Both the position numbers and the translations under genes were made by a program. A stretch of DNA of 24,432 nucleotides, taken from the NCBI GenBank assembly GCA_041562555.1, contig JBFEXS010000023.1, forward strand, positions 1-24,432. Direction: 5' to 3'. The stretch is from Sulfurimonadaceae bacterium (lineage in GTDB: Bacteria; Campylobacterota; Campylobacteria; Campylobacterales; Sulfurimonadaceae). The notes beneath the pieces were generated by a model. The model saw only the letters and a list, made by a program, of their open reading frames with translations. It had not been told where the DNA came from and did no database searches. Of this stretch, positions 1 through 19,015 are shown piece by piece (within the stretch, counting starts at the first letter, position 1; the number at the start of each line of letters is the position of its first letter).

Positions 1-1221
1 AGCGGTTCTACCGGCGTACCAAAAGGAGTGGAACTTTCACATAAAAATCTGATCACCCAGATCAAAGATACACGTGAGGGTTTTGATCTCCATCCTGATT
101 ATAAGGCACTCAGCTTTTTACCCTTGGCACATATCTTTGAACGTATGGTGATGTCTTATTACCTTACTTCAGGTATCTCTGTCTTCTTCGCTGATGATGT
201 CAAGAACGTAGCCAATCTTTTAAAAGAGATTAAACCGCAGGTGATGACAGTCGTACCTAGGCTTTTAGACAAGATATATACCAAGATGCATGAAAATGCA
301 GCACAGGCAAAAGGGATCAAGTGGCTTATAGCGCAGGCTGCTTTTTACAGGGCCAATCATAAAGACCCAAATATTCCTAAACAGAACTTTATTGATCGGT
401 TGTTTGCAAAACTCGTCTATAGCAAGTTGCTAGAGGCTCTTGGAGGCGAATTGAAATATCTTATTACCGGCGGGGCACCTTTGTCGATGCAGGTCTATAC
501 GTTCTTCCATAATATCGGTATTCCCCTATATCAGGGTTACGGCCTGACGGAGACTTCACCGGTGATCTGTGTAAATACTTCAAAAAACAACAGAATCGGT
601 AGTTGTGGTAAGAAATTCTCCCATGTAGAAGTGAAATTGGCAGAGGATTCTGAACTCTTGATGAGGGGAGACTCTTTGATGCTGGGGTATCACAAACAGC
701 CCCAAAAGACGAAAGAAGTCATGGATGAAGATGGGTGGTTTCATACCGGTGATCTGGCTGAAATCGATTCTGAAGGGTATATCTCTATTCTGTCTCGTAA
801 GAAGGAGCTTTTTAAAACATCTACGGGAAAATATGTCAGTGCAATTGCTATGGAACAAAAGATCACTGCAAATAAATGGATCGATTACGCTGTGGTTATC
901 GCGGATAATCGTCCTTTTGTATGTGCCTTGATCTTCATGGATGAGGTTTTGTTAAAAGAGTTTGCGCAAAGGAAGGGACTGAGCGACCTTCCTTTTGAAG
1001 AACTGGTCTCCCATCGTCGTATACAGGCGATAGTACTGAATATCATCAAAAAAGTGAATGAAAAACTCAACGACTGGGAACAGATACAGAAATATCACAT
1101 TATAACGGATGAGGTGAGTATTGAGAGCGGGATCTTGACTCCTTCGATGAAGGTCTCTCGCAGTAATGTAGAAAAGAGATATCAATTAGAGATAGAAAAT
1201 TTTTATAGGAGTGCACAATGA
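1..1221 (+). CDS. Long-chain fatty acyl-CoA ligase (AMP-dependent synthetase), 5'-truncated
   Basis: Frame 1 is open from base 1 and reads SGSTGVPKGV (AMP-binding P-loop), so the true start lies upstream of the window. It also has FLPLAHIFER, YQGYGLTETSP, GWFHTGDL and LTPSMK motifs of FadD15/ACSL-like ligases. Confidence 0.93.
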   Translation, partial: SGSTGVPKGVELSHKNLITQIKDTREGFDLHPDYKALSFLPLAHIFERMVMSYYLTSGISVFFADDVKNVANLLKEIKPQVMTVVPRLLDKIYTKMHENAAQAKGIKWLIAQAAFYRANHKDPNIPKQNFIDRLFAKLVYSKLLEALGGELKYLITGGAPLSMQVYTFFHNIGIPLYQGYGLTETSPVICVNTSKNNRIGSCGKKFSHVEVKLAEDSELLMRGDSLMLGYHKQPQKTKEVMDEDGWFHTGDLAEIDSEGYISILSRKKELFKTSTGKYVSAIAMEQKITANKWIDYAVVIADNRPFVCALIFMDEVLLKEFAQRKGLSDLPFEELVSHRRIQAIVLNIIKKVNEKLNDWEQIQKYHIITDEVSIESGILTPSMKVSRSNVEKRYQLEIENFYRSAQ

Positions 1222-2507
1222 AAGAACGGATTGCGATTATCGATGGTCTTCGTACCCCCATTGCCAAGGCGGGTGGAAAGTTTCAAGGGTTTCAAGCAGA
1301 AAAGTTGGGTGCCCATATCGTTCAGGAATTGGCACTTCGTGTAGGCATTCCTTTTGAGGATTATGATGAAATCATTATCGGGAATGTCTCCCAACCCGGG
1401 CATGCGGCAAATGTTGCTCGCGTCATTTCCTTGGAAGCGGGTTTTCCTGATTCTACAATAGCATATACGGTGCATCGTAATTGTGCCTCGGGGATGGAGT
1501 CGATCACATCTGCGGCGTCGAAAATATTTTCCGGTGATGGAGAGATATTCTTAAGCGGGGGAGTTGAGTCCATGTCTAATGTCCCCTTGCTCTACGGTGA
1601 GAAGATGACGGAGTTGTTTGCTGCTTTGTTCAAGGCGAAAAGCCTATCTGAAAAACTGTATACTCTGAGCCATTTTAGACCACGCTACTTAAAACCTATT
1701 GTCGGCCTGTTGCAGGGGTTGCGTGATCCGGTCTCAGGTCTGATGATGGGTTCAACGGCTGAAGTCTTGGCGCAGGATTTTGGAATTGATAGAGAAGAAC
1801 AAGATGCTTTTGCACTCCAAAGCCATAAACGTGCGGAGGCCGCAATCAAGGCCGGAATATTCAAAGAAGAGATCGCCCCGGTGGTCTATGATCTGAAAAA
1901 AGGTCTCGTGATGGAAGATGATGATGGTGTACGGTTTGGACAGAATATGAAAGCTTTGGGTAAATTGCGTCCTTTCTTTGATCGCAAAAACGGTACGGTC
2001 ACTGCAGGAAACTCTTCTCAGATTTCAGATGCAGCGGCGGCAGTCGTCCTGATGAGTGAATCAAAAGCGAAAAAGATGGGCCTGGATCCTTTGGGCTATA
2101 TGAGTCATTATGCCTATGCCGGATTAGAACCAAAGCGCATGGGGATGGGGCCTGCCTATGCGACGGCAAAACTGTTTAAACAGACGAGGTTAGGTATGAA
2201 AGATTTTGATCTTATCGAGATGAATGAGGCCTTTGCTGTTCAGGCATTGGCCAATATCAAGGCATTTGAATCCGATGCTTATGCACAGGAGCATTTTGGA
2301 CGCTCTAAAGCCCTGGGCAGCATTGATACAACATTATTGAATGTCAACGGTGGTGCAGTGGCTCTTGGACACCCCGTAGGAATGACAGGTACACGTTTAG
2401 TGATCCATACCCTTAAAGAACTGCGACGACGCGGCAAGAACAGAGGCTTGGCAACACTGTGTATCGGCGGCGGCCAGGGTGCATCACTAGTCTTGGAGGT
2501 GGAATAA
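1218..2507 (+). CDS. fadI: Acetyl-CoA C-acyltransferase (3-ketoacyl-CoA thiolase), FadI/FadA-like
   Basis: Catalytic motifs NCASG, NEAF, GHPVG and CIGGG are present. ATGA overlap with the ligase stop; AGGAG RBS at about 1207-1211. Confidence 0.92.
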   Translation: MKERIAIIDGLRTPIAKAGGKFQGFQAEKLGAHIVQELALRVGIPFEDYDEIIIGNVSQPGHAANVARVISLEAGFPDSTIAYTVHRNCASGMESITSAASKIFSGDGEIFLSGGVESMSNVPLLYGEKMTELFAALFKAKSLSEKLYTLSHFRPRYLKPIVGLLQGLRDPVSGLMMGSTAEVLAQDFGIDREEQDAFALQSHKRAEAAIKAGIFKEEIAPVVYDLKKGLVMEDDDGVRFGQNMKALGKLRPFFDRKNGTVTAGNSSQISDAAAAVVLMSESKAKKMGLDPLGYMSHYAYAGLEPKRMGMGPAYATAKLFKQTRLGMKDFDLIEMNEAFAVQALANIKAFESDAYAQEHFGRSKALGSIDTTLLNVNGGAVALGHPVGMTGTRLVIHTLKELRRRGKNRGLATLCIGGGQGASLVLEVE

Positions 2508-4612
2508 TGAAAGTGTTTGATTTTTCTATAGAGGATAATATTGCCACACTCTGTCTGGACCTTGAAGATTCGACGGTTAATGTCCTCTCGTCAGATGTCT
2601 TACGTACTTTGGATGAAAAGCTCGATAAACTAAAAACCATGCAGGATATCAAACTGCTGAAAATAACCTCGGCCAAGGAGGGGATATTTATTGCAGGTGC
2701 GGATATCTCAGAAATAGAGACCTTGCGGGATGAAGACGAGGCGTATGAACTGGTGCGTGAAGGTCAGAAAATACTTTCAAAAATCTCTGCTTTACCATTC
2801 CCGACCCTTGCGATCATTGATGGTGCCTGTTTGGGCGGTGGTCTGGAACTGGCCCTGTGTTGTAGCTATCGATTGGCTACCGAAAACACAAAAACGAAAA
2901 TTGGCCTTCCAGAAGTGAATCTTGGTGTTTTACCCGGATTTGGAGGTACACAGCGCTTGCGACGTCTAACGGGGCTTTCAAAGGCCCTGGAATTAATTCT
3001 GGGTGGGAAGATCTTAAACGGTAAAAAGGCGGAAAAACTGGGTGTAGTGGATGCCTGTGTCCCAAAAGGGTATCTGGAATTTAAAGAGAAAGCTTTTGTC
3101 GAAACAATTTTAAATGATCCCAAAAAGATCTTGGCTAAACGCAAGAAGAACTCTTTTATGGAAAAATATCTTCCTTCTGTTGTCTTCTCATATGCCCGTA
3201 AAAATGTGATGAAGATGACAAAGGGTAAATATCCCGCTCCCCTTGCTATTTTGGACCTTATTGAGAAGACTTTGAACAAAGAGGTCGAAGAAGGGTTGGA
3301 ATTTGAAGCCAGAGCTTTTTGTAAGTTGGCCATAACAGATATCAGTAAAAACCTTATTGGACTTTTTTATACCTCTGAAGCCCTTAATAAAGAGGCAGGC
3401 GTCAAACGCAAGGTAAATCCGACACCGATCAATATGGTTAATGTCATCGGTGCAGGGGTTATGGGTTCAGGCATGGTCTTTCAGTTCTCGAAGATCGACA
3501 AATTGGTCAGAATGAAACTACGTCGCTATGAGCAGGCAGGTGCAGCGATGCAAAGTATTGCCAAGGTGTATGACGGGTTTATAAAGCGTCATCGGCTCAC
3601 CAAGGAAGAGGTGGGACAGAAGCTGGCACATATCTCTTATACAACGGAGTTTGACGGGTTTAAACATACCGATCTCGCCCTAGAAGCAATTGTCGAGAAT
3701 AAAGAAGCCAAACAGGAACTGTATACTGAATTGGAAGCACGCATGGATGAGAAGGCGATAATCGCATCGAATACATCTTCCCTGTCCATCACAATGCTAA
3801 GCGAGAAGATGCAGCATCCGCAACGTTTTATAGGAATGCATTTTTTTAACCCGGTACCAAGAATGCCCCTTGTGGAGATCATCCCCGGCAAAAAGACATC
3901 GGATAAAACGATTGCTACCGTTGTGGCTTTGGCAAAAGAAGCCGGAAAAACACCGATCGTCGTAGGTGATTGTGCAGGTTTTCTGGTTAATCGTATTTTG
4001 TTGCCATATATCAATGAAGCCGTTCGTATGTTCGAAGAGGGTGCGGACTTTGAACGTATGGATAATATCATTGCTGATTTCGGTATGCCCATGGGCCCAT
4101 TTGTTCTGGCTGATGAAGTAGGACTTGATGTCGGTTATAAGGTGGCGAAGGTACTTGAAGAGGCTTATGGAGAACGTATGAAGGTATCACCTATATTAGA
4201 TAGGGTATATCAACAGATGCAGCTCTTAGGCAAAAAATCCGGCAAAGGTTTTTATATTCACGAAGCGAAAAAACGTGTGGTGAACGATGCGGTCAAGAAC
4301 CTTGTGTTCTCCAAGCGTCAGTTTGATAAACAGGAGATAATCGATAGAGCGATGCTGATAATGGTGAATGAAGCAGCAATGTGTTTGGAAGAAGGTATCG
4401 TTCAAAGTGCTCAATATTTGGATATGGCGATGATTATGGGTACGGGGTTCCCTCCTTTTAGGGGAGGCTTGTTACGTTATGCGGACTCCCTTGGTATAGA
4501 AAATATCGTTATCACACTCGAATCATTATCCAAAAATTATGGTCTCCGCTTTGCACCGGCAAAACTTCTTGTTGTTATGGCTAAAAATGGCCAAACTTTT
4601 TATAAAGGATAA
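2507..4612 (+). CDS. fadJ: Fatty-acid oxidation multifunctional enzyme (enoyl-CoA hydratase + 3-hydroxyacyl-CoA dehydrogenase), FadJ/FadB-like
   Basis: Crotonase motifs FIAGADI, GGGLELAL and LPEVNLGVLPGFGGTQRL; dehydrogenase motifs GAGVMG, SNTSS, GMHFFNP and GFLVNR. Start moved from 2459 to the ATG at 2507 (TAATG overlap with the thiolase stop, GGAGG just upstream). Confidence 0.92.
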   Translation: MKVFDFSIEDNIATLCLDLEDSTVNVLSSDVLRTLDEKLDKLKTMQDIKLLKITSAKEGIFIAGADISEIETLRDEDEAYELVREGQKILSKISALPFPTLAIIDGACLGGGLELALCCSYRLATENTKTKIGLPEVNLGVLPGFGGTQRLRRLTGLSKALELILGGKILNGKKAEKLGVVDACVPKGYLEFKEKAFVETILNDPKKILAKRKKNSFMEKYLPSVVFSYARKNVMKMTKGKYPAPLAILDLIEKTLNKEVEEGLEFEARAFCKLAITDISKNLIGLFYTSEALNKEAGVKRKVNPTPINMVNVIGAGVMGSGMVFQFSKIDKLVRMKLRRYEQAGAAMQSIAKVYDGFIKRHRLTKEEVGQKLAHISYTTEFDGFKHTDLALEAIVENKEAKQELYTELEARMDEKAIIASNTSSLSITMLSEKMQHPQRFIGMHFFNPVPRMPLVEIIPGKKTSDKTIATVVALAKEAGKTPIVVGDCAGFLVNRILLPYINEAVRMFEEGADFERMDNIIADFGMPMGPFVLADEVGLDVGYKVAKVLEEAYGERMKVSPILDRVYQQMQLLGKKSGKGFYIHEAKKRVVNDAVKNLVFSKRQFDKQEIIDRAMLIMVNEAAMCLEEGIVQSAQYLDMAMIMGTGFPPFRGGLLRYADSLGIENIVITLESLSKNYGLRFAPAKLLVVMAKNGQTFYKG

Positions 4613-4614
4613 AC

Positions 4615-7008
4615 ATGGATTATATTTTACTAGGGTTAGTACTTTTATTGTTAGGTTTATGGTTTGTTGGGACAAAGGCTGTTTATTGGGCAGCACTCTT
4701 AGCAGTGATTATTTATATTTCTTGTGATCCCGGAGCGGTGTTTTGGTTGATATACGTGCCGATAAACCTCGTATTATTGGTACCTGAGATACGCCGTAAT
4801 CTCATCTCCAAGCATTTGGTCGGTCTTATCAATAAGTTGAAATTGATGCCAAGTATCTCGAACACGGAAAAAACAGCATTACGAGCAGGTACGATATGGG
4901 TGGATGGGGAGTTCTTCTCTGGAAAACCGAACTTTTCGAATATATTCAAGGAGAAATATCCTGCATTGACATCTGAAGAGAAGGAGTTTCTGGATACAAA
5001 GGTTGATACGGTATGTCAAATGACAGATGACTGGGAAGTGTTTCAAAAACGTGATCTGTCAAAAGAGGTGTGGCAGTACCTCAAAGATGAGAAATTCTTT
5101 GGAATGATTATCCCAAAATCTTATGGAGGATTGGGCTTTTCAGCATTGGGGCATTCGGCAGTAATACAAAAGATGGCTTCACGTTCCCAAGTGCTTGCGA
5201 TCTCCACGATGGTCCCTAACTCTCTTGGGCCGGCGGAGCTGTTGATGCATTATGGGACAACTGCGCAAAAAGAGCATTATCTACCAAGACTGGCAGACGG
5301 CAGGGATATCCCTTGCTTCGCATTGACAGAACCGATGGCCGGTTCAGATGCAACATCGATACGTTCGTATGGTGAAGTCTTTGAAGATGAGGATGGGAAT
5401 GTCAAGATACGACTGCAGTTTGATAAGCGCTATATCACTTTAGGTTCCATTGCAACCGTGATCGGACTTGCATTTACGCTACGCGATCCAAACAATGTGT
5501 TGGAAAGGGGGGAGGACCTGGGAATAACCTGTGCACTGGTAGATGCAAAACTCAAAGGGGTGAAGCAGGGACGTCAACATGATCCTTTGGGCGTGCCGTT
5601 TATCAACTCCCCAATCAGTGGTAAGGATGTCATCATCAGTATCGATGATGTCATCGGAGGAGAAAAGGGGATCGGCAAGGGTTGGATGATGCTTATGGAA
5701 TCTCTTGCTGTAGGCCGCGGTATTTCACTCCCGTCTACAAGTACGGGTGGAGCTAAGCTTGGAGCACGTGTCGCAGGTGCTTATGCCGAAGTGAGAGAAC
5801 AGTTTGGTATCTCGATTTCCAAATTCGAAGGGATTGAAATTGAACTTGCCAGGATAGCAGGGTTTACCTATATGATGGATGCAGCGAGGAAGTTTACCAT
5901 TGGTGCAATCGATGAGGGTAAAAAACCTGCAGTTATCAATGCGGTGATGAAATATCACTCTACGGAGAAGTTTAGAGAGATCATGACGCATTCGATGGAT
6001 ATCCTGGGTGGAGCAGCAATCTCATTAGGTAAAAAGAACTTGATCGCCCATGCGTATTTGGGAGCACCGATCGCCATTACGGTAGAAGGTGCAAATATAA
6101 TGACGCGTACACTCATTCAGTTCGGTCAGGGCGTTATCAGATGTCATCCCTATGCATATAAGGAGATCGAGGCTCTTGAAGAGGGCGATGTGAATGCCTT
6201 TGATGAAAACTTTTTTAAACATATCGGGTTTACACTGAGAAATATGGTCAGAATGATACTTCTAAGCTTGAGTAGAGGATATCTACATATCTCATCGCGT
6301 TCGTCGCTGATAGCAAAATATGAACGAAAACTGGCATGGTCTTCTGCAACGTTTGCTTTCCTGACAGACTTTGTTATGGGATATTATGGGGGTAGTCTAA
6401 AGCAAAAAGAGAAAATTACCGCACGTTTTGGCGATATCCTCTCCTGGATGTATCTTCTTACGGCGACACTCAAACGATTTGAGGCAGAAGGGAAGCAAAA
6501 AGAGGATGAAATCTATGTCAGATGGATTGGAGAGTATGCCTTGCATCAGATCCAAGTCGCATATGAGGAGATCAGTCAAAATATCGATCGTTCACTGGTA
6601 GGTCTTTTCTTCGCCTATCCAATTGCATGGTATATGCGTCTTAATGCTATCAGCAAAGCACCGCGTGATTTTTATTCTAAAACCCTGGCTTCAAAAATCA
6701 CTGTCGATGGAAATGACAGAGAGCGCTTGACAGAGGGGATCTATTTAAGTGAAGACGTAGACCAAGCCATAGGAAGGCTTGAACATGCCTTCAAGCTGTC
6801 AAGAAAGGCAGATAGTATCGTACATAAGATCAAAAAAGAGCTGCGTGCAGGTAGGCTGCAAAAAGGCTCGAACCTTTATGATGATGCCTTAAAGGCAGGT
6901 GTAATCAGTGAGGCTGAACATGAATTGTTGCATGAGGCTAGGAGAGTCAAAGAAGAAGCTGTCCTGGTAGATGAGTTTACGACGAAAGACTATTTGAAAC
7001 GAGCATAA
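4615..7008 (+). CDS. fadE: Acyl-CoA dehydrogenase, FadE type (N-terminal membrane anchor, C-terminal extension)
   Basis: 797 aa with hydrophobic N-terminus and VPNSLGPAELL, CFALTEPMAGSDA, KRYITL, GRGISLP and TVEGANI motifs, as in E. coli-type FadE. Confidence 0.92.
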   Translation: MDYILLGLVLLLLGLWFVGTKAVYWAALLAVIIYISCDPGAVFWLIYVPINLVLLVPEIRRNLISKHLVGLINKLKLMPSISNTEKTALRAGTIWVDGEFFSGKPNFSNIFKEKYPALTSEEKEFLDTKVDTVCQMTDDWEVFQKRDLSKEVWQYLKDEKFFGMIIPKSYGGLGFSALGHSAVIQKMASRSQVLAISTMVPNSLGPAELLMHYGTTAQKEHYLPRLADGRDIPCFALTEPMAGSDATSIRSYGEVFEDEDGNVKIRLQFDKRYITLGSIATVIGLAFTLRDPNNVLERGEDLGITCALVDAKLKGVKQGRQHDPLGVPFINSPISGKDVIISIDDVIGGEKGIGKGWMMLMESLAVGRGISLPSTSTGGAKLGARVAGAYAEVREQFGISISKFEGIEIELARIAGFTYMMDAARKFTIGAIDEGKKPAVINAVMKYHSTEKFREIMTHSMDILGGAAISLGKKNLIAHAYLGAPIAITVEGANIMTRTLIQFGQGVIRCHPYAYKEIEALEEGDVNAFDENFFKHIGFTLRNMVRMILLSLSRGYLHISSRSSLIAKYERKLAWSSATFAFLTDFVMGYYGGSLKQKEKITARFGDILSWMYLLTATLKRFEAEGKQKEDEIYVRWIGEYALHQIQVAYEEISQNIDRSLVGLFFAYPIAWYMRLNAISKAPRDFYSKTLASKITVDGNDRERLTEGIYLSEDVDQAIGRLEHAFKLSRKADSIVHKIKKELRAGRLQKGSNLYDDALKAGVISEAEHELLHEARRVKEEAVLVDEFTTKDYLKRA

Positions 7009-7027
7009 AGAGGAGGGAGAATATAGT

Positions 7028-9223
7028 ATGAGTAATTTACTCTATAGTTCCAGCAATTATTTAATTCGCATGGTAGAGTCAATACTCGAAACAAATATTC
7101 ATGTGCATGGAGAAGAGAACCTGCTTCATGATGCTCCCACTCTTTTTGTGGCAAATCATTTTACCCGTTTTGAGACCTTCGTTATGCCCTATATTATTTT
7201 TTCACACTCTCAGATGGGTGTGCGTTCACTCGCAGATCACTCTATCTTTGTCGGATACTTTGGAAAGTTTTTAAATAGGGTCGGAACACTTTCTACCAAT
7301 GCAGAACATAGAAATGAGATCATTCTTGGTGATCTTATGACAGGTCGGGAGAATTGGATCATTTACCCTGAAGGGGCGATGGTTAAAAATAAGAAGATTA
7401 TCAAAAACAATGAGTTCATTCTAGACTTCCTAGACGGTACCAGTCCGGTTCATACGGGCTCAGCCGTATTGGCAATAGAAAGTGAATTACTAAAACAGGA
7501 GTATAAAAGAGCCCAACAGGCAGGTGATGTCATCAAGGTAAGACAGATGCGTGAGAAGTATTTTATCAAGCCAAATGAACGTGTCTCTTATCGCAGTACA
7601 GTCGTAGTCCCGGTTAATATCACCTATACGCCAATTCGTCCCGGGATGAACCCTATGATGAGCATTGGGAACAAGGTGGTTGAGCATATCGATGAACGTA
7701 TTAAGGAAGAGCTGGAGATCGAAGGCAATATCTTGCTTAATTCGGAAATACATGTACGATTCGATAAACCTGTGGATATCCTGACATACATCTATAAGGC
7801 GAGAGATGAAATGCGGTGTCAAACAGATAAGGAAGGAACGATCTCGGATAAAGACCTGATCGGATACTGTCGTCATGATCTGACAACACAGTTCATGGAT
7901 GCAGTCTATAAAAACACCTTGATCAATTTTGATCATATCTTTGCGCTGGTATTGGCCCATTATTGTGAAGAATATATTGGGTTACATGAGTTGAAAAGGG
8001 CTATTTTCTTGGCCGCAAGGGATGTCATGGCGTTGAAGACCTATCATGTCCACCATAGTATCAGGGATGAGCTCTACAAGCTGCTTACGGATGAGAAAGA
8101 CCCCTGGTTTGAAAGTGCATTGGGTCTGGCCTTGGAGCAACATGTCTTAGCACATGTTGAAGATGAACTGTATAGGATTAATAAAGGGGTGTTTGAGCAA
8201 GAACATGAGTTCCATACGATTCGTATTCGCAACACTTTAAAGGTCATCTTAAATGAGATCTCCTTATTCAATAATGTGACGCAAAGTGTACAGGATAATC
8301 TGAATAAGAGCTCTCACAAGATTAAAGAAGAGGTGTTCTATCTTATTTACAATCAGGATAAGAAGATTTATAAACAGACCTACAATAAGTTTTATTCAGT
8401 GCTTCTGTCAAAGCCAAAGGAGATCGGTGAGCCGTTTATCTTATATAACCCCGATTTTTGTGTAGGCGTCGTCTTATCTCACGGTTATACATCCTCTCCT
8501 TCGGAGATCAAAGAGCTGGCATATCATCTGCATGAACAGGGGATGAATGTCTATGGGGTCCGTTTACAGGGGCATGGTACCGTAAGCGAAGACCTTCGTG
8601 ACAGTACCTGGGAAGGTTGGTACGATAGCTTTAATCGCGGTTTTGCCGCTTTGCGGCAGGTAAGTAAGAAACTTTTTGTTGCAGGGTTCTCGACAGGAGG
8701 ACTATTAGCCATAATGGCAACGGCGAGAAAGCGTAATAGGGTTGATGGACTAATTGTGATCAATGCGGCTTTGGAGCTTCAGGATATCCGTGTCAATTAT
8801 GTCGTCCCGACACTTAATAAACTGAATGATTTTTTAGCACTTTTTAAAGCGGACTTGGAGTATGTTGAAGGTGAATCGGAGTTTCCGGATTTCAATTACA
8901 AACGAAATTACATCAAGTCTTTGGATCAGTTGCGTTTATTGATGCAAGAGTGTCAGTTGGCACTACCTTTGATTACAACACCTACCTTGATCATACAAGG
9001 AGATAAAGATCCTGTAGTGAAGCCTGAAAGTGCCAACAAGATTTTCGATATGATCAGTTCGCAAGACAAGCGATTGGAGAGCCTCTCTTCAAACCGCCAC
9101 GTGATTGTCTTGGGTGAGGGAAAAGAGAGAGTCTTTAATTGTGTAAGTGAGTTTATTCAGTCAAAGGCCAAGGACTTTTTTTTATACAAAGCAGATGGAA
9201 TGCGTGAAAAGTGTGATCTGTAA
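7028..9223 (+). CDS. Fusion of a PlsC/PlsB-like acyltransferase domain and a C-terminal alpha/beta-hydrolase (esterase/monoacylglycerol lipase-like)
   Basis: The N-terminal part has VANHFTRFE (HX4D-like block I) and IYPEG. The C-terminal part has SHGY, nucleophile elbow GFSTG (8684-8698), QGDKDPVV and SNRHVI. Strong GAGGAGG RBS upstream. Confidence 0.82.
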   Translation: MSNLLYSSSNYLIRMVESILETNIHVHGEENLLHDAPTLFVANHFTRFETFVMPYIIFSHSQMGVRSLADHSIFVGYFGKFLNRVGTLSTNAEHRNEIILGDLMTGRENWIIYPEGAMVKNKKIIKNNEFILDFLDGTSPVHTGSAVLAIESELLKQEYKRAQQAGDVIKVRQMREKYFIKPNERVSYRSTVVVPVNITYTPIRPGMNPMMSIGNKVVEHIDERIKEELEIEGNILLNSEIHVRFDKPVDILTYIYKARDEMRCQTDKEGTISDKDLIGYCRHDLTTQFMDAVYKNTLINFDHIFALVLAHYCEEYIGLHELKRAIFLAARDVMALKTYHVHHSIRDELYKLLTDEKDPWFESALGLALEQHVLAHVEDELYRINKGVFEQEHEFHTIRIRNTLKVILNEISLFNNVTQSVQDNLNKSSHKIKEEVFYLIYNQDKKIYKQTYNKFYSVLLSKPKEIGEPFILYNPDFCVGVVLSHGYTSSPSEIKELAYHLHEQGMNVYGVRLQGHGTVSEDLRDSTWEGWYDSFNRGFAALRQVSKKLFVAGFSTGGLLAIMATARKRNRVDGLIVINAALELQDIRVNYVVPTLNKLNDFLALFKADLEYVEGESEFPDFNYKRNYIKSLDQLRLLMQECQLALPLITTPTLIIQGDKDPVVKPESANKIFDMISSQDKRLESLSSNRHVIVLGEGKERVFNCVSEFIQSKAKDFFLYKADGMREKCDL

Positions 9224-9235
9224 TGAGGTGGAAAG

Positions 9236-10795
9236 ATGAGTGAAGAACTGTTTGAATTTGCCGAAGAGAAGCAAGCGAGCGTAAGTTATGATGGATTCTG
9301 GAAGATACTGGTTGTGGATGATGATGAAGAGGTACATGCCATCACAAAAGCAGTGTTGAAAGACTTTGTTTTTGAAGGAAAAGAACTGGCACTTGTGCAT
9401 GCGAATAGTGCGGCAGAAGCAAGGAAGTGCCTGAGCGAACATGAAGACATTGCTCTGATACTGCTTGATGTGGTAATGGAGACAGATGCAGCCGGACTTG
9501 ATTTTGTCGAATATGTACGCAATGAACTCAATAATAAACTTGTACGAATCGTTCTACGTACCGGCCAGCCTGGACAGGCGCCCCAACGCGATGTCATAGT
9601 TTCTTTGGATATCAATGATTATAAGGAGAAAACAGAACTTACCGTTGATAAGCTTTTTACAACGGTGATCGCCTCGATACGTTCTTATAGGGATCTGATT
9701 AATATCGAACATAAGCGTTCGGTTATCGAGCAAAACCGAAAGGGGTTAAAGCAGATCATCGATGCTTCGTCAAACCTGTTTGAGATACATTCTTTACAAG
9801 AGTTTGCGAAGGGTGCACTTACCCAACTGATATCCATTCTGAATCTTGACGAAGATTCTCTGTATTTGAAAGTTGATGGGCTAAGTCTGAGTAAAACCAG
9901 CGACGGTTTTTATGTTTTAGCGGGAACAGGTAAGTACTCACAGTTTGAGAATCAACCGGTGAATCAATACATTGATAATGATCTAAAAGAAAAATTCGAT
10001 CGTGTCCTTGAAGAAGAGAAATCGATGTTTTTTGATGAAGTCTTTATTGGGTATTTCAGGTCAAGTAATGGCAGCATCAATATGATCTATGTAGATGGCT
10101 GTAAGGGACTAACGGACAACGATAAGGGGTTGATCGATATATATTCTTCCAATGTCGCGATAGCCTTTGAGAATCTTTATCTCGATAAGGAGGTCCTTGA
10201 TACCCAGAATGAAGTGATCTCAACACTCAGTGAGGTAGTTGAAAGCCGCTCCAAGGAGACAGCAAATCACGTCAAGCGTGTGAGTGAGTATGCGTATTAT
10301 CTTGCAAGAAAATCGGGCCTTGGGGAGATTGAGAGCACTACCTTGAAATATGCTTCGCCCCTGCATGACGTAGGTAAGATAGGTATTCCAGATAGTGTTT
10401 TGTTGAAGACGACACGTTTGAGCGATGCTGAGTTTGAAGTGATCAAGACGCATACATCGATTGGCTACAGCATCTTGCGTAACTCTAAACGTCCGATACT
10501 TCAAGCTGCCGCAATAGTTGCCCATGAACATCATGAGAAGTTTGATGGGACAGGGTATCCAAGAGGGCTTAAGGGACATGATATTCATATTTATGGTCGT
10601 ATCATAGCGATTGCAGATGTATTTGATGCTTTGTCGCATCGACGTTGCTATAAAGAGGCATGGAGCCTTGAGGAGACCCTGTCCTACATGGAAGTAAATG
10701 CGGGAACGCATTTTGATCCGGTATTGATCAAACTATTTTTATCGGATATCAGCTATATCCAGGATATTATGCGACGCTATTCTGACGAGATCTGA
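9236..10795 (+). CDS. Response regulator with REC, central DUF3369-like and HD-GYP (putative cyclic-di-GMP phosphodiesterase) domains
   Basis: REC motifs LVVDDD, LLDVVME and LRTGQPG; HD-GYP motifs HDVGKIG, HHEKFDGTGYP and IADVFDAL. GAGG RBS upstream. Confidence 0.9.
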   Translation: MSEELFEFAEEKQASVSYDGFWKILVVDDDEEVHAITKAVLKDFVFEGKELALVHANSAAEARKCLSEHEDIALILLDVVMETDAAGLDFVEYVRNELNNKLVRIVLRTGQPGQAPQRDVIVSLDINDYKEKTELTVDKLFTTVIASIRSYRDLINIEHKRSVIEQNRKGLKQIIDASSNLFEIHSLQEFAKGALTQLISILNLDEDSLYLKVDGLSLSKTSDGFYVLAGTGKYSQFENQPVNQYIDNDLKEKFDRVLEEEKSMFFDEVFIGYFRSSNGSINMIYVDGCKGLTDNDKGLIDIYSSNVAIAFENLYLDKEVLDTQNEVISTLSEVVESRSKETANHVKRVSEYAYYLARKSGLGEIESTTLKYASPLHDVGKIGIPDSVLLKTTRLSDAEFEVIKTHTSIGYSILRNSKRPILQAAAIVAHEHHEKFDGTGYPRGLKGHDIHIYGRIIAIADVFDALSHRRCYKEAWSLEETLSYMEVNAGTHFDPVLIKLFLSDISYIQDIMRRYSDEI

Positions 10796-13159: not shown

Positions 13160-13227
13160 ATTATAATTCTATCATTTACTGTTGGTTAACTAATTTAAAC
13201 CAGATATAATTAATACTATGCCATAAT
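13160..13227. promoter_or_regulatory. Candidate divergent sigma70 -10 elements for the kinase operon and the peptide gene
   Basis: Palindromic ATTATAAT at 13160-13167 gives TATAAT on both strands; there is also TATAAT at 13205-13210 and TGcCATAAT at 13219-13227 in an AT-rich spacer. Confidence 0.4.
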
Positions 13228-13271
13228 CAGGCAAAAGTAATCTAGTCTAAAGTTTTGAAATGAGGGTAAGC

Positions 13272-13526
13272 ATGGAAAAAGTATTTGAAAATGACTGTAA
13301 TGAGTCACGTCGTGATCTTTTAAAAAAGGCCTATGTAGCGCCAGCAATAGTGGCTTTAGGCTCGATGACGCTGACAACGAATCTCAGCGGTTCGTCATCT
13401 TTACAGAATAATGGATGGGGAAATGGTGATCAAACAGCACCGGGGCACTCTTTGCCTAACAATGATGCTGAAAACAATTTGCATGGAAAATATCATAATA
13501 AATTTGGTTCTCCAAACCCTAATTAA
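13272..13526 (+). CDS. Small (84 aa) putative RiPP precursor / Tat-signal peptide
   Basis: GAGGG at 13262-13266 precedes the ATG at 13272. The product has SRRDLLK, then YVAPAIVALGSMTLTT, a Ser-rich linker and an Asn/Gly-rich tail. It is divergent from the kinase-PqqD-NTase operon and followed by a hairpin. Confidence 0.72.
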   Translation: MEKVFENDCNESRRDLLKKAYVAPAIVALGSMTLTTNLSGSSSLQNNGWGNGDQTAPGHSLPNNDAENNLHGKYHNKFGSPNPN

Positions 13527-13550: not shown

Positions 13551-13578
13551 TCAGAGTCTTTTCAGGCTTTGACTTTTT
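13551..13578 (+). terminator. Probable intrinsic terminator of the peptide gene
   Basis: TCAGAGTCT-TTTC-AGGCTTTGA forms a 9-bp stem with two G-U pairs, followed by CTTTTT, about 25 nt after the stop. Confidence 0.5.
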
Positions 13579-13743
13579 CCTTCGTAACAAAGATGGTTTT
13601 TACCACTTCCTTTAGTTCACTTCTGATGTGAATAATGTTAAATATAGATACTTTTAAAGATTAAAGTTTAATTTTTTTTACAAACTAAAGTCAGATTAAT
13701 CTTAACAATATACAATTAAGCATTCTAAACTATGGAGAAAATA

Positions 13744-14812: not shown

Positions 14813-15376
14813 ATGATAAAAGCGAGTGCACGTCATATTTTAGTGGATAGTGAAGAACAGTGCTTGGCACTTAAATCGGAGATTGAATCAGGAAAAGATT
14901 TTGCTGAAGTTGCAATGCAAAACTCCGCATGTCCATCCAAAGCTCAAGGCGGGGAACTGGGTGAGTTTGGACCGGGACAGATGGTACCAGAGTTTGACAA
15001 GGTCTGTTTCGAAGGCGACCTTGGGGTACTTCATGTGGTGAAAACGGATTTCGGTTATCATATCGTGGAAGTGACCGGTCGCGGAGAAGTTCAGATGCCA
15101 AGCGGTATGGCAAGTGCACGCCATATCTTGGTTGAGAGTGAAGAAAAATGCCTGGCGCTTAAAGCAGAGATTGAAGCGGGTAAAGACTTTGCTCAAGCTG
15201 CACAGGAATACTCTTCGTGCCCATCAAAGGCTCAAGGCGGGGAACTGGGTGAGTTTGGACCGGGACAGATGGTACCTGAGTTTGACAAGGTCTGTTTCGA
15301 AGGCGATCTGGGCATTATCCATGTGGTACAGACACAGTTTGGCTGGCATCTGGTAGAAGTTACCGCACGCTCTTAA
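14813..15376 (+). CDS. ppiC: Peptidyl-prolyl cis-trans isomerase with two tandem PpiC/parvulin domains
   Basis: Two copies of ASARHILV...CPSKAQGGELGEFGPGQMVPEFD...T.FG(Y/W)H. AGGAG RBS; no signal peptide. Confidence 0.92.
   Translation: MIKASARHILVDSEEQCLALKSEIESGKDFAEVAMQNSACPSKAQGGELGEFGPGQMVPEFDKVCFEGDLGVLHVVKTDFGYHIVEVTGRGEVQMPSGMASARHILVESEEKCLALKAEIEAGKDFAQAAQEYSSCPSKAQGGELGEFGPGQMVPEFDKVCFEGDLGIIHVVQTQFGWHLVEVTARS
14942..15306 (+). repeat. 77-bp near-identical direct repeat within the double parvulin gene
   Basis: 14942-15018 and 15230-15306 match at 76 of 77 positions (A14989 vs T15277), offset 288 bp. Confidence 0.9.
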
Positions 15377-17297
15377 GCCCTTTAACAAAGGCATGGATTT
15401 TGGCCTTTAGCAAGCCAAGTTCATGCTGTCTCTTAGAATATCGGAGTTCATGGTAGAGTCGGTTTATCTCTGCAAGACTTTGGTAATGATTCGTCTTTCC
15501 CATAAGTGATTGTAAAAACTCGGACATACTTTCGCCCTGTTTTCGTTCAAATCCCTCTTTTCTTAATGCCCTTATCAAAACCTCCATCTCACACAATAGT
15601 TTGTCTTTACATTGCACTTTTTGAAGTGAGATGAACAGAAAAAATGCGAGTGTGACAAGAAGTAAGAGCGTAGCTATAAACTTGATCAGAAAGAGTGTGT
15701 CCGAGAGCAACTCTTTAAGTAATGAAAGTTGTTTGGAACGGTCATACTGCAAGACCCAGGTATTGATAAGATGACGTGTATACATATAATATATATTAAG
15801 GTGTTTAAAAAGCTTCTGTAGTGTAGTGTCTTGTGTGTATGCGCTCGCAAGACCTGTATTGTCGGCTTTGATAACACGTCTTGCAGTGGATGTCGGCTCA
15901 AATCTGATCCAGCCTTTGTCTTTTAGGTAGAGTTCGACCCAGGCATGGGCATCGGCTTCTTTGACAACAAGGTAATCATTGATGGCATTGGCTGCATCTG
16001 CCTTATATCCTGTAACGATACGGGAAGGGATACCCAGCATACGCGCAGATGTAGCAAAAGCAGCAGCAAAATGGACACAATACCCAACCTTTGAATCGTG
16101 TAAAAACGAATCTGTAGGGCGCAAGAGGTCCAGTCTCTTAGGCTTGAGGGAGTAGGAAAGGTCCAAAGAGGTGAAATAGCTCATGAGGGCTTTGGCCTTG
16201 GTGTTGTCGTCTTGATCTATATCGATAGTGTTCATTAGGTCCTGATAGGTTCTGGGATCACGGCTGATGTTGACATCAAGGGCTCTTTCAAAGGTATTCT
16301 CTTTCTGTGTTGTATAAACCAGTGCAGCACGACCTTCATAATAGGTGATCTCGTCAATAGGTTGTGTAGAATAGGTGATGTAGTCCTTCGTTATATAACT
16401 TTTGGGAGGTTGACGTAGGGGCAGATCGAGCATATACAGCCATCGTTTTTTATGCGGATATAGTTTGACCCTGTAGTCTATGACTGCTTTTGGGTTGAAA
16501 ATGGATACGCGAGTAGCCCTTGGCGGTTCACTGTTGATCCACTCATTGAGTTTATCCTCATATAAAGTAGAGCCACGAAAGTATAAAAGGGCAGCAGGAG
16601 GCACCTCTCCTTCAAAACTGACCTCCATGACGATCTTGGGAGAGGGAACAAGCAGCGCCTTGGAATCGAGATACATATGACCATCGTGACCTGTTCGGCT
16701 AATCTGCTCACCTTGAAAACCGAAGCTTGCTTTTTTATAGGATATTCGAGGAAAGGTAAGAAAGAGAAGCAAAACGATCGGTAAAGAGAAGAGATATAAA
16801 AGCCCATTAATACGGAGTGCATTTCGAAGGCTGCTATGCATACGCGCATAAAGCAGCAGGAGTGTAAAGATAAAGAGGGTGAACAGGGCATAAAACAACA
16901 TGGATATAGAGTTGAAAAAGAAGAATGACAGGATCATTAACATCGCAGGGGAGATCAACAGATAAAAATTGATTGTCTGGGTGAGTCTTTGCAAAATGAT
17001 GGCCATGGTTAGAAAGGAGATGAGTAAAGAGATGAAAACAAGCAGGCGTGAGAAACTAGAGAAGTTATATTCGGCAAAGAAACTTAGACTGATCGCCAAT
17101 ATACCTAAAAAAGTAAAGATAAGAAGCGTGAGTCGCGAATTTGATTTTTTATAGATAAAGATCAGACCCAAAAAAGCAAAAACAAGCATAGGTAACTTGA
17201 GGATGAAAAGGTGCGGCAGAAAGGAGAGACCAAGGGCAATATCAAGCAGTTGAAGACGCGTTAATTTAGTAGAGGGCAAGAAATGTGAGAATTTCAT
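15360..17297 (-). CDS. Membrane-anchored transglutaminase-like protein (DUF3488/TgpA type)
   Basis: Multi-TM N-terminus; GYCVHFA (Cys), RIVTGY, AHAWVE (His) and RFEPT. Third gene of the MoxR-DUF58 operon. Confidence 0.88.
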   Translation of the reverse strand: MKFSHFLPSTKLTRLQLLDIALGLSFLPHLFILKLPMLVFAFLGLIFIYKKSNSRLTLLIFTFLGILAISLSFFAEYNFSSFSRLLVFISLLISFLTMAIILQRLTQTINFYLLISPAMLMILSFFFFNSISMLFYALFTLFIFTLLLLYARMHSSLRNALRINGLLYLFSLPIVLLLFLTFPRISYKKASFGFQGEQISRTGHDGHMYLDSKALLVPSPKIVMEVSFEGEVPPAALLYFRGSTLYEDKLNEWINSEPPRATRVSIFNPKAVIDYRVKLYPHKKRWLYMLDLPLRQPPKSYITKDYITYSTQPIDEITYYEGRAALVYTTQKENTFERALDVNISRDPRTYQDLMNTIDIDQDDNTKAKALMSYFTSLDLSYSLKPKRLDLLRPTDSFLHDSKVGYCVHFAAAFATSARMLGIPSRIVTGYKADAANAINDYLVVKEADAHAWVELYLKDKGWIRFEPTSTARRVIKADNTGLASAYTQDTTLQKLFKHLNIYYMYTRHLINTWVLQYDRSKQLSLLKELLSDTLFLIKFIATLLLLVTLAFFLFISLQKVQCKDKLLCEMEVLIRALRKEGFERKQGESMSEFLQSLMGKTNHYQSLAEINRLYHELRYSKRQHELGLLKAKIHAFVKGLKSVR

Positions 17298-18141
17298 GGT
17301 GGCTCCTGCTGCGTGAATTTAGCGTGGTATTGGGAAAATGCATACTGTAACTGATACCTTTTTTCTTGCACTCTATTGCCCAGAGACACAATTGAGAGAG
17401 CCTTTGCTCATCACTCTCAGCAGATGTTATAAAGTCAAAATGTAAATGTTTGCTTTTTTCCAGAAGGCTGAACTCCTTGGACATCAGTTCAGTACCCTTG
17501 GCTACGGATGGCCAATAGATCAGGGAGAGGGGCTCTCCCTCTTTATAAAGTTTGATCCCCTCAAAGTCTTCCTGTTCACCGAAGAGGGCTTTGTGTTTGG
17601 AACTGAGCGTATCAAGACTTTTTCCCTTCGCCTCCGGATAGATGATGACTTCATCGTTTATCGGGACTGTTTTATATAAGATCTCGTGTGGCAGTGGGAA
17701 ATAACTTCCTATCTGAAGATCGGGAAGATGTGTTTTTCCTCTTTTCGTCGGGGTAAAAGAGAGTGTGATCGCCTTTTTCTGCAGACCTGCAAGCGTGTCT
17801 ATGATGACGGTAGAACTTTTGTTCGTACATTCGAGGGCATAGCTCTCTCTATCAGGGTTTGGATTGTAAATATTCAGAGAATATTCAGAGGCCTGATTGG
17901 CAAAAAGATCCTGTGCACTCAGCAAAGAGACCTGGAGTTCGTAAAGATTGAGCCTGCCGATGATACTTGAGGCCCCTGCAAGAGAGAAGGTGAAAAACAT
18001 CATCAAATAGACAATGTTGTAATTATGCATATAGGCCAAAAAGAACAGACCCACAATACTGAGTACAAGTAGGATAAAATACTTGGTCGGTCTGGTATGG
18101 ATCTCTTTAAGAATCCGGATGAATGTGTGAAAGAATTTCAT
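17266..18141 (-). CDS. DUF58 domain protein
   Basis: N-terminal TM pair, KRG, IIYP and EDFEGIKLYKEGEPLSLIYW..AK....KEF motifs. Start is uncertain (ATG at 18141 or 18153; 18237 is unlikely). Confidence 0.85.
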   Translation of the reverse strand: MKFFHTFIRILKEIHTRPTKYFILLVLSIVGLFFLAYMHNYNIVYLMMFFTFSLAGASSIIGRLNLYELQVSLLSAQDLFANQASEYSLNIYNPNPDRESYALECTNKSSTVIIDTLAGLQKKAITLSFTPTKRGKTHLPDLQIGSYFPLPHEILYKTVPINDEVIIYPEAKGKSLDTLSSKHKALFGEQEDFEGIKLYKEGEPLSLIYWPSVAKGTELMSKEFSLLEKSKHLHFDFITSAESDEQRLSQLCLWAIECKKKGISYSMHFPNTTLNSRSRSHHEILTFLALY

Positions 18142-19015
18142 CAGATATCTCATGGGCTGATTTGGAACCCTCTTTGGAAGAGAGTCTGTGCGCCGTGACG
18201 TAAGGCAGGAGGAAAGAGATGTCTGAAGGAATGACATAATCCCGTCCCTGTATCAGAGCCCAGGCTCTGGAGAGTTTACTCAAGGCAACGGCGCCACGTG
18301 TTGATATTCCACCTTGATACAGTCCGCTTTCTCGGGTAAAGCCCAAGATCGCCTGCAGGTAGTCTAACAGGGCCTCACTGATATGGACAAGTTCTACTGC
18401 AGATCGAAGCTCTTGTATATGGGTTGGATTGACGGGACTCAGTTCGTCAAGTTTAAGCTGCAGATGCTGTGCCAAGATAGAACGCTCTGCCTGCTTATCA
18501 GGATATCCCAATGAAAAAGAGATGGCAAAACGGTCAAGTTGTGAACTCGGAAGCTCAAAGGTACCTACTTCCTCAAAGGGATTTTTTGTCGCCATGACAA
18601 AAAATGGATGCGGAAGTTGCATCGTTTTACCGTCGATACTGACCTGGTGTTCTTCCATCGCTTCCAGGAGTGCAGACTGGGTTTTTGGGGTTGCACGATT
18701 GATCTCATCTGCAAGAAGGAATTGCGAGAATATAGGACCGGACTTGAAACGAAAAGCGGACTCTTTCGTATCAAAATAGTTCATACCCAAAATATCGCTG
18801 GGAAGGAGGTCTGAGGTGAATTGGACTCGAGAGAAATCAAGACCCAGTACCTGCGCGAAAACTTTTGCCAGAGAGGTCTTTCCGACTCCGGGAAGATCTT
18901 CTATGAGAATATGTCCGTCACATAAAAAAGCGCACAGGCACAGCTGTATCTTTTCACGTTTTCCCTTGATACGTTTTTCGATCTCGTCAATTATCATATC
19001 TATTTTCTTTTGCAT
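18107..19015 (-). CDS. moxR: MoxR-family AAA+ ATPase
   Basis: IEDLPGVGKT, RVQFTSDLLPSD, LADEINRATPKTQSALLEAMEE, ATKNP and QLDRF motifs. Confidence 0.95.
   Translation of the reverse strand: MQKKIDMIIDEIEKRIKGKREKIQLCLCAFLCDGHILIEDLPGVGKTSLAKVFAQVLGLDFSRVQFTSDLLPSDILGMNYFDTKESAFRFKSGPIFSQFLLADEINRATPKTQSALLEAMEEHQVSIDGKTMQLPHPFFVMATKNPFEEVGTFELPSSQLDRFAISFSLGYPDKQAERSILAQHLQLKLDELSPVNPTHIQELRSAVELVHISEALLDYLQAILGFTRESGLYQGGISTRGAVALSKLSRAWALIQGRDYVIPSDISFLLPYVTAHRLSSKEGSKSAHEISDEILSHIHPDS

Follow-up and report, generated by a model that had tools for sequence, protein, structure and literature searches.

A putative dual-use leader, combining a lasso-type docking motif with a twin-arginine signal, beside a kinase/PqqD/PF14907 cassette of Campylobacterota

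In known RiPP pathways, the leader docks the modifying enzymes, and a dedicated protease and pump complete maturation. Here, we describe an 84-aa peptide in which a segment of about 40 residues appears to combine a docking motif with a general export signal. The peptide is encoded in a stretch of 24,432 nucleotides (positions 1 to 24,432 of contig JBFEXS010000023.1, assembly GCA_041562555.1, from a Sulfurimonadaceae bacterium of the Campylobacterota; hereafter ‘the window’). On balance, we favour the reading that it is the substrate of the adjoining cassette of an HprK-like kinase, a PqqD-type RRE, and a PF14907 transferase, that its leader is put to dual use in a manner resembling the linear polyphosphorylated peptides (LPP) of Bacillota, and that the product leaves the cell through Tat and signal peptidase I.

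If this reading is correct, a three-gene cassette together with housekeeping Tat and LepB would suffice for maturation. A function and a modifying enzyme set could then be assigned to many small proteins named ‘hypothetical’ or ‘Tat-signal’ (558 clusters at 50% identity), the LPP family would reach Gram-negative bacteria by a different exit route, and a tractable system would be at hand for a single peptide segment shared by a cytoplasmic chaperone and the Tat receptor. The arrangement also suggests a simple rule for locating the substrates of orphan PqqD/HprK/PF14907 cassettes. The features of the locus are collected in Table 1.

Table 1. Features of the precursor gene and of the divergent operon, in window positions
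Feature	Position	Strand	Basis and remarks
Precursor gene, 84 aa	13272..13526	+	ORF list; leader/signal about residues 1-40, then Gly/Asn-rich core
Ribosome-binding site GAGGG	13262..13266	+	Read from the sequence; 5 nt 5' of the ATG at 13272
Twin-arginine n-region S-R-R-D-L-L-K-K, residues 12-19	13305..13328	+	RR, K18, and K19 invariant in alignment A2
Y-V-A-P-A-I-V-A-L-G, residues 21-30	13332..13361	+	Candidate lasso/LPP-type RRE recognition motif inside the hydrophobic region of the putative signal
Putative c-region and Ser-rich junction S-M-T-L-T-T-N-L-S-G-S-S-S	13362..13400	+	Inferred
Terminator-like hairpin and T tail	13551..13582	+	Pattern match only; 25 nt 3' of the stop codon
Promoter-like site TTAACC, 18 nt, TATAAT	13160..13189	-	Directed toward the kinase operon; consensus match only, 10/12 positions
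HprK-like P-loop kinase, 295 aa	12213..13100	-	Weak PF07475 and TIGR04352 matches at the P-loop region
Discrete PqqD-family RRE, 90 aa	11951..12223	-	PF05402, 3.9e-14
PF14907 (NTP_transf_5) nucleotidyltransferase, 385 aa	10797..11954	-	PF14907, 1.9e-47

Anatomy and conservation of the leader

The start Met of the precursor is matched by the starts of its homologues, and the Gly/Asn-rich core includes NNGWGNGDQTAPG. No Pfam or NCBIfam family was found for the whole 84-aa peptide (E <= 0.01), and a word-indexed homologue search with the precursor returned eight proteins including the query (homologues P0002-P0008). Bases 13305-13391 encode S12-G40, S-R-R-D-L-L-K-K-A-Y-V-A-P-A-I-V-A-L-G-S-M-T-L-T-T-N-L-S-G, exactly as the original prediction had read them. 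That prediction also fitted the segment to the lasso leader pattern YxxPxLxxxGxxxxxT. Y21, P24, I26, G30, and T36 of the window copy do match it; the Thr, however, is not kept in the family (T in 24 of 150 relatives), and its occurrence at motif position 16 here is best taken as a chance fit.

A profile built from leader and core together (A1) was too broad, reaching 122 of 401 genomes mainly through generic Tat signals and adhesin repeats, and was replaced by one built from a leader-only alignment (A2), which holds 11 sequences: the homologues from the word search, together with relatives drawn from three genomes within the order. Invariant in A2 are R13, R14, K18, K19, Y21, A23, P24, L29, and G30. 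Over 1.84 billion representative proteins, the A2 profile gave 558 matches (E <= 0.001; clusters at 50% identity), the best 150 of which are 46-141 aa long throughout. Counts among these 150 are partly circular, the profile itself favouring RR and Y..P: RR is found in 149 (K-R in one) and Y with P at Y+3 in 150, with F at RR+2 in 138, V/I/L at Y+5 in 145, L at Y+8 in 137, and G at Y+9 in 143, and further downstream Pro at Y+14 in 96 and Ala at Y+17 and Y+19 in 99 and 98, respectively. The consensus of the same 150 relatives is a complete signal peptide, (S/T)RRxFLKK followed by a 17-residue h-region and P-x-x-A-x-A, and the region C-terminal to it is highly variable.

The original prediction had staked the dual reading on the conservation of RR and YxxP together in homologues, and both proved to be conserved, not only among the database relatives but also among peptides that adjoin the kinase (n = 30): RR occurs in all 30, the motif begins with Y in 28 and with W in two, and RR and [Y/W]xxP stand together in 30/30. 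Within the source genome, six-frame segments contain 21 Tat-like n and h regions, and the precursor is the only one whose h-region contains Y..P.[LIVMFA]...G; the pattern as such occurs 41 times in the 1.96 million six-frame residues of the genome. Against a chance origin of the double motif, its conservation in relatives weighs more than this rarity.

Signal-peptide properties and the route of export

The S-R-R-D-L-L-K of the window agrees with the Tat motif (S/T)-R-R-x-F-L-K, with Leu in place of Phe. The Tat model TIGR01409 scores the window leader at 14.3 bits, below its curated threshold of 16.7. In scans of single leaders, 9 of the 11 A2 sequences match TIGR01409 (E <= 10, best 0.0017) and TIGR02811, all weakly and below the cut-offs. 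Models of lasso leaders give a similar picture, NF033528 lasso_cyano (over residues 18-44) and PF19397 (over residues 18-31) each matching five of the 11 leaders, again weakly and below the curated cut-offs.

The Kyte-Doolittle value of the motif window is 1.14 in the precursor and +1.51 +/- 0.27 in the Tat-type family. The source genome's own Tat signals (n = 6) span 1.13-1.81, a range that includes the h-region of the window leader, and the Sec-type cytochrome c that serves as the sole Sec comparator has 2.46. The genome encodes TatC, two TatA/B genes, and an S26 signal peptidase (LepB), and the homologue WP_138153094.1 carries the NCBI name ‘twin-arginine translocation signal domain-containing protein’.

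An A.A at a fixed distance from the motif is found in 108 of the 150 best of 558 relatives, and Pro at -6 from the predicted cut is common among relatives. The window copy lacks A-x-A and offers only S-G-S or G-S-S as candidates; its segment at 13362..13400 is the probable cleavage zone of signal peptidase I and a candidate phosphorylation site. After the predicted A-x-A cut, the cores are enriched in Ser, which stands at position 1 in 41 of 108 relatives and at least once in positions 1-3 in 71 of 108 (background, 9.7%). This enrichment is compatible with a phosphorylation site like that of LPP.

The same dual-use leader and cassette might instead be served by Sec, with RR kept for another reason such as recognition by the kinase or the RRE. 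We regard this as unlikely. The window copy does fall under the TIGR01409 cut-off and has Leu at the Phe position, the cores are small, rich in Gly/Asn/Ser, and probably unfolded and hence Sec-compatible, and enzyme-modified DUF2282 precursors and bufferins are described as carrying Sec signals (PMC12710340, PMC11626156). However, Sec n-regions accept K/R exchange, whereas 149 of the 150 best relatives keep RR with F-L-K after it; the h-region resembles in hydropathy the Tat signals of the genome and not its single Sec example; the NCBI pipeline names a homologue as a Tat-signal protein; and a bulky phospho/glycosyl decoration added in the cytoplasm would suit Tat better than Sec.

The cassette and its two genomic contexts

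Divergent from the precursor gene lie three minus-strand genes, for the kinase, the PqqD protein, and the PF14907 protein. The predicted model of the kinase (pLDDT 91.7) finds its best fold matches in the HPr kinase/phosphatases 1knx, 1kkl, and 3tqf (E ~1e-6), followed by PEP carboxykinases. By curated models, the kinase is not a member of TIGR04352 (20.1 bits against a cut-off of 200); the TIGRFAM HPr-rel-A set to which that model belongs (HprK-related kinase A) is, we presume, a trio of kinase, PqqD relative, and nucleotidyltransferase. The window kinase is homologous to kinases within true lasso clusters.

The best NCBIfam matches of the 90-aa PqqD protein are lasso PqqD chaperone models, under their cut-offs. 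A word-indexed search recovered three proteins including the query, and the PqqD alignment was therefore assembled from loci. Compared with solved proteins, the resulting profile matched TbiB1 at 3.1e-23, 9x90_B at 1.1e-17, TfuB1 at 5.6e-10, and true PqqD at 1.9e-4; with the window sequence alone, the best solved relative was again TbiB1 (8.5e-10). By these sequence relations, the PqqD protein of the cassette belongs with the RREs of lasso systems. Its Asp73, invariant in alignment A4, has an Asp as its counterpart in TbiB1 and TfuB1 and a Gln in 9x90_B, which presumably is PbaB1. In LppB, D70 is described as the Asp that binds Tyr, with Gln in its place in the Trp-reading PbaB1 (PMC13381572).

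A predicted complex of RRE and leader scored 0.46 (runs 0.46, 0.46, and 0.43), against 0.02 for the best of three controls, a verdict of weak support on a scale where the pass mark is attained by 116 of 157 solved complexes and two of 215 mismatched pairs, and where 18 of the 157 solved complexes and both of those mismatches lie above the pass mark at scores of up to 0.60. The runs agreed in at least 92% of contacts, with a partner pLDDT of at least 54. As the TbiB1-TbiA and TfuB1-TfuA complexes have already been solved, the pass of this predicted pair may reflect likeness alone.

The window ORFs of at least 90 aa include neither a lasso cyclase nor a B2 protease, and no SpI-type peptidase or ABC/MsbA-like exporter. 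Transglut_core3 (B2) was not found in the source genome, which is 88.9% complete, and of its three Asn_synthase matches the sole full-length one (599 aa) is on another contig. A transglutaminase gene at 15360-17297 was considered as a lasso B2 and rejected, its 645-aa product being of the TgpA type in a MoxR/DUF58-like operon. The precursor was likewise rejected as a true lasso precursor, given the missing B2 and cyclase and a penultimate Thr that is not conserved. Such variability at the Thr position is what one would anticipate in a system that has neither enzyme.

The survey of loci was anchored on the kinase, not on the peptide, and hence is not circular. It covered public genomes and 401 genomes of the same order, 23 of which have the kinase, and every kinase locus was classified with models built for the survey. 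Fifteen loci, that of the window included, are of a Tat type, with peptide, kinase, PqqD, and then transferase, and sometimes a second peptide. All 15 carry one to three leader peptides (23 in all), with RR and Y..P in 23/23 and the Gly in 22/23. PF14907 is adjacent in 10 of the 15 and not adjacent in five; B2, cyclase, and ABC genes are absent from every one. Eleven further loci are true lasso clusters with an ABC transporter, Transglut_core3, HprK, Asn_synthase, and PqqD nearby (with Pfam confirmation for three), and none of them has a Tat-type leader. The remaining kinase loci comprise four with the kinase alone and one further match, L055, that is a weak fragment. Seven additional kinase-adjacent peptides have RR in 7/7, together with YxxP in five and WxxP in two.

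This clean split into two contexts within the same order supports the idea that a dedicated protease and exporter are replaced by Tat and signal peptidase. The original prediction had offered the Tat route as an explanation for the lack of both at the locus, and the distribution agrees with it: the 15 loci without ABC, B2, and cyclase are all of the Tat type, and the 11 that have these genes are not. More broadly, its reading of a leader with two roles gains support from the comparative evidence, that is, from the conservation of RR and YxxP, the split of contexts, and the lasso-type RRE.

In the lasso clusters, four precursors were found. L064 and L065 fit YxxPxLxxxGxxxxxT and end in Ser; in L061, the Leu and Gly are replaced by Ile and Ala, and the last residue is Trp; and L062 is broken by the end of its contig. 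On the Kyte-Doolittle scale, the motif windows of these precursors lie on the hydrophilic side (-0.39 to -0.88). Set against these sister leaders, the Tat-type leader appears to be one in which the recognition residues are kept, the spacers have turned into an h-region, and an n-region with RR is added. The Tat-type loci fall into two clades in the kinase tree, with seven and eight members and good support, both nested with lasso-type kinases in a 21-row group (support 100/99). The label of Tat type or lasso type requires two changes on this tree, which is midpoint-rooted, with an arbitrary root and long branches (L059, L067, L068, and L061), and gives no direction of evolution.

At the level of genomes, a leader match at E <= 1e-9 was obtained in 10 of the 401, all 10 of them among the 23 with the kinase. 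The best matches of the leader profile in kinase-less genomes are small Tat proteins associated with formate dehydrogenase and lacking Y..P. Four genomes have an unlinked ‘orphan’ leader peptide, and each of them has the kinase and exactly one PqqD of the same type elsewhere. There is also a second leader type, with K-R, then F-M-K-K-F-G-K-Y-A, and no YxxP, which can carry the same NNGWGNGDQ core and adjoins a longer HprK-like protein and PF14907. No PqqD was found near this type, a 20-kb locus included, and YxxP thus tracks the discrete RRE.

An ordinary family of small secreted proteins, in which Y..P..LG would be a flavour of the signal peptide and the cassette would act on polysaccharide or on another protein, is a somewhat less probable account than the Sec variant of the dual-use leader. 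In relatives, the cassette often lies within polysaccharide export loci that also encode Wza, Wzc, and glycosyltransferases, the peptide is unlinked from the enzymes in the four genomes with orphans, and its modification is itself a prediction. Such a family would nevertheless leave unexplained why the peptide is present in 15/15 loci, why the RRE is nearest to lasso B1 proteins and the sister kinases sit within true lasso clusters, and why Y..P is lacking both from the generic formate-dehydrogenase-associated Tat peptides of kinase-less genomes in the order and from the leader type that has no PqqD nearby. The tolerance of W for Y, moreover, is that of known RRE motifs, reported as [Y/W]xxPx[L/V/I/F/A], and LPP clusters, too, are described within capsule loci and yet modify peptides of this kind (PMC13381572). 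Least probable of all is an N-terminus that serves as a cytoplasmic RiPP leader, hydrophobic by accident, or as an uncleaved membrane anchor, with no release by Tat and signal peptidase: the window copy is without A-x-A and the locus encodes no exporter or peptidase, but the n/h/c architecture is complete, with A.A and the Pro at -6 recurring in relatives, and since sister lasso leaders work with hydrophilic x positions, hydrophobicity would here be an added feature.

Proposed mechanism and relation to known systems

The analysis shows the anatomy of the sequence, its conservation, the linkage of the genes, the families and folds of the enzymes, and that the genome encodes TatA/B/C and LepB. 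From these we infer that the RRE binds the leader, that the peptide is phosphorylated and where, in which order the steps occur, that export uses Tat and not Sec, and where cleavage falls. Leader residues 1 to 36-40 would perform both enzyme docking and export. In the cytoplasm, the discrete PqqD-type RRE would bind [Y/W]xxPx(V/I/L)xxLG and present the peptide to the HprK-like kinase, which would most likely phosphorylate a Ser close to the junction of leader and core; the PF14907 transferase, where present, would extend the phosphate. Preceded by S-R-R-x-(F/L)-L-K-K and followed by a c-region of small residues, the docking stretch would at the same time form part of a twin-arginine signal peptide. 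TatABC would then receive the peptide in decorated, linear, and hydrophilic form, and the leader would be removed by the housekeeping signal peptidase I. As proposed, the use of Tat and signal peptidase I means that no B2/SpI-type peptidase, cyclase, or ABC exporter would be needed.

Two observations belong beside this scheme. The C-terminal Ser, which is the site of the lasso kinases, is not required in the precursor family, and the phosphorylation site given here is a guess. In addition, an RRE that grips a hydrophobic h-region might be expected to interfere with Tat targeting, a point against a leader of dual use.

We also offer, tentatively and as something that may well not hold, an extension in which the RRE would act as a ‘hold-back’ chaperone for Tat. 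It would clamp the [Y/W]xxP/h-region until the core has been decorated, and its release would license export and cleavage. Lasso leaders and Tat signals would then be interconvertible, and the order would have switched between ‘cyclise and pump’ and ‘decorate and Tat-export’ with the same pair of RRE and kinase. TorD, DmsD, and NapD are cytoplasmic proofreading chaperones that bind cognate Tat signals before export, and by analogy a cytoplasmic protein is proposed here to bind a Tat signal at the same stage. Their clients, however, are cofactor enzymes, whereas the present case would involve a PqqD-type winged helix, small peptides as clients, and covalent decoration as the purpose.

The literature searched, which takes in few of the subscription journals, yielded no description of a RiPP leader that is a Tat signal bound by an RRE. 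Phosphorylated and phosphoglycosylated lasso peptides such as paeninodin and pseudomycoidin likewise have an HPr-kinase homologue, a nucleotidyltransferase, a B1-type RRE, and a YxxP leader; in lasso precursors, the C-terminal Ser is reported to be the residue phosphorylated by HPr-kinase homologues, and in pseudomycoidin a nucleotidyltransferase is reported to attach a hexose to the phosphate (PMC8498205). As with a lasso leader, the peptide of the window has a YxxPxLxxxG-type motif beside an RRE of B1 kinship, and binding between the two is predicted. In contrast to those systems, the cassette has no B2, macrolactam cyclase, or ABC exporter, the penultimate Thr is not conserved, the precursor has no C-terminal Ser, and the leader is hydrophobic and Tat-like.

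Bufferins and DUF2282 precursors are described as modified peptides bearing Sec signals (PMC11626156, PMC12710340). They resemble the present family in having a general export signal at the N-terminus of an enzyme-modified peptide, which makes a dedicated exporter unneeded. Their signal is of the Sec type, and PMC12710340 reports finding no specific RRE-recognised motif there, whereas an RRE motif and a Tat-type signal appear to coincide here; the enzymes, MNIO there and a kinase here, are unrelated.

The closest described system is the LPP of Bacillota (PMC13381572, Nat Commun 2026), in which lppA is accompanied by LppK, LppB, LppS, LppD, and LppN. According to that account, the HprK-like kinase polyphosphorylates core Ser3, binding by the RRE requires YxxP, and clusters, often situated in polysaccharide loci (capsule loci included), have one to three precursors (35-200 aa) whose YxxP-containing N-terminus is conserved and whose C-terminus varies widely. 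LPP differs in having its own SpI-like (SipW-type) peptidase and MsbA-like exporter, neither of which is found among the window ORFs; the ABC model, correspondingly, had no match in the 15 Tat-type loci. The LPP leader is given as YxxPxVLxHQxIxFETxxS, only the YxxPx(V/I/L) part of which is shared with the precursor family, whose own leader is a putative twin-arginine signal with RR-x-F-L-K-K, hydrophobic x positions, and A-x-A. The hosts differ as well, Bacillota there and Campylobacterota here, and the words Tat, Sec, periplasm, and Proteobacteria do not occur in the available text of PMC13381572. We nonetheless read the locus of the window as an LPP-like variant, akin to lasso-peptide tailoring systems, with Tat and signal peptidase I in place of the peptidase and exporter, a reading suggested by what the two have in common: kinase, RRE, and transferase (LppN being likened to the PF14907 protein by kind only); one to three precursors per locus, of 46-154 aa here, with variable C-termini in both; and a setting in polysaccharide loci, seen here in relatives.

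The core motif and the stretch preceding it

The core motif of the window peptide, NNG(W/F/Y/H)GNGDQxAPGNSxxxNNAEN, is recognised by neither Pfam nor NCBIfam. It is also found, at times repeated, inside very large open reading frames at loci L013, L018, L026 and L028, where the frames run from 635 to >5000 aa and carry RTX/adhesin-like repeats. Most peptides of the NNGxGNGDQ core class have a short S-S-L-(Q/K) stretch before the motif, kept even when a predicted A-x-A cut (a signal peptidase I cleavage-type site) lies many residues upstream; this stretch is a second candidate modification site.

Other Tat-type and related leaders

A second family of leaders, with the order K-R-x-F-M-K-K-F-G-K-Y-A, A-G-M-A and A-x-A, lacks the RRE recognition motif YxxP. 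Tandem copies with differing cores are frequent in this family, and some of its leaders bear the NNGWGNGDQ core of the window peptide. Neighbouring genes encode a PF14907 transferase and a longer HprK-like P-loop protein (~380–418 aa), but a search of these loci revealed no PqqD. This may be a sister cassette whose recognition element differs or is fused. In genomes of another taxonomic family of the order, small Tat-signal proteins of ~70 aa directly adjoin formate dehydrogenase genes and match TIGR02811-type sequences; these served as a natural control, being Tat peptides without YxxP.

Features discussed, with locations in the window or at loci of other genomes (L-numbers)
Feature	Location	Strand	Remark
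S-S-L-(Q/K) stretch	window 13392-13412		also in relatives
MoxR-type AAA ATPase	window 18107-19015	-	
323-aa protein	window 17266-18237	-	without Pfam family
TgpA-type transglutaminase	window 15360-17297	-	
Second leader family	L035 (G103:C1:1398000-1417999), L074, L076, L030, L031		proteins P0006, P0007
Formate dehydrogenase-linked Tat-signal proteins	L005-L010, L012, L014-L017 and others		
Orphan-peptide loci regions	L071:4947-6275; L073:6141-7382		
Lasso precursor	L061:8919-9128		

Other genes in the window

The operon formed by the MoxR-type ATPase, 323-aa protein and transglutaminase genes (15360-19015, minus strand) is unrelated to the peptide cassette. On the plus strand, positions 1-10795 begin with genes for fatty-acid beta-oxidation: a fragment of an acyl-CoA synthetase, a thiolase, and FadB-like and FadE-like genes. 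After these come a fusion of acyltransferase and alpha-beta-hydrolase (731 aa) and a response regulator combining DUF3369 with an HD-GYP-type HD domain.

Orphan peptides and lasso clusters

‘Orphan’ peptides with Tat/YxxP leaders (L070-L073) have short cores with a C-terminal G-P-P-P-S-D-P-x-G-W; in L071 and L073 a DUF4214 protein directly precedes them, and kinase and RRE are unlinked. Campylobacterales genomes also hold genuine lasso clusters that include an HprK-like kinase (L043, L056-L065); their gene content is ABC, B2, kinase, cyclase and PqqD. Four candidate precursors were read (L061, L062, L064 and L065): that of L062 is interrupted by the contig end, Ser is the last residue in L064 and L065, and the L061 precursor ends in Trp, its terminal P-S-D-P-G-G-W resembling the ending of the orphan peptides.
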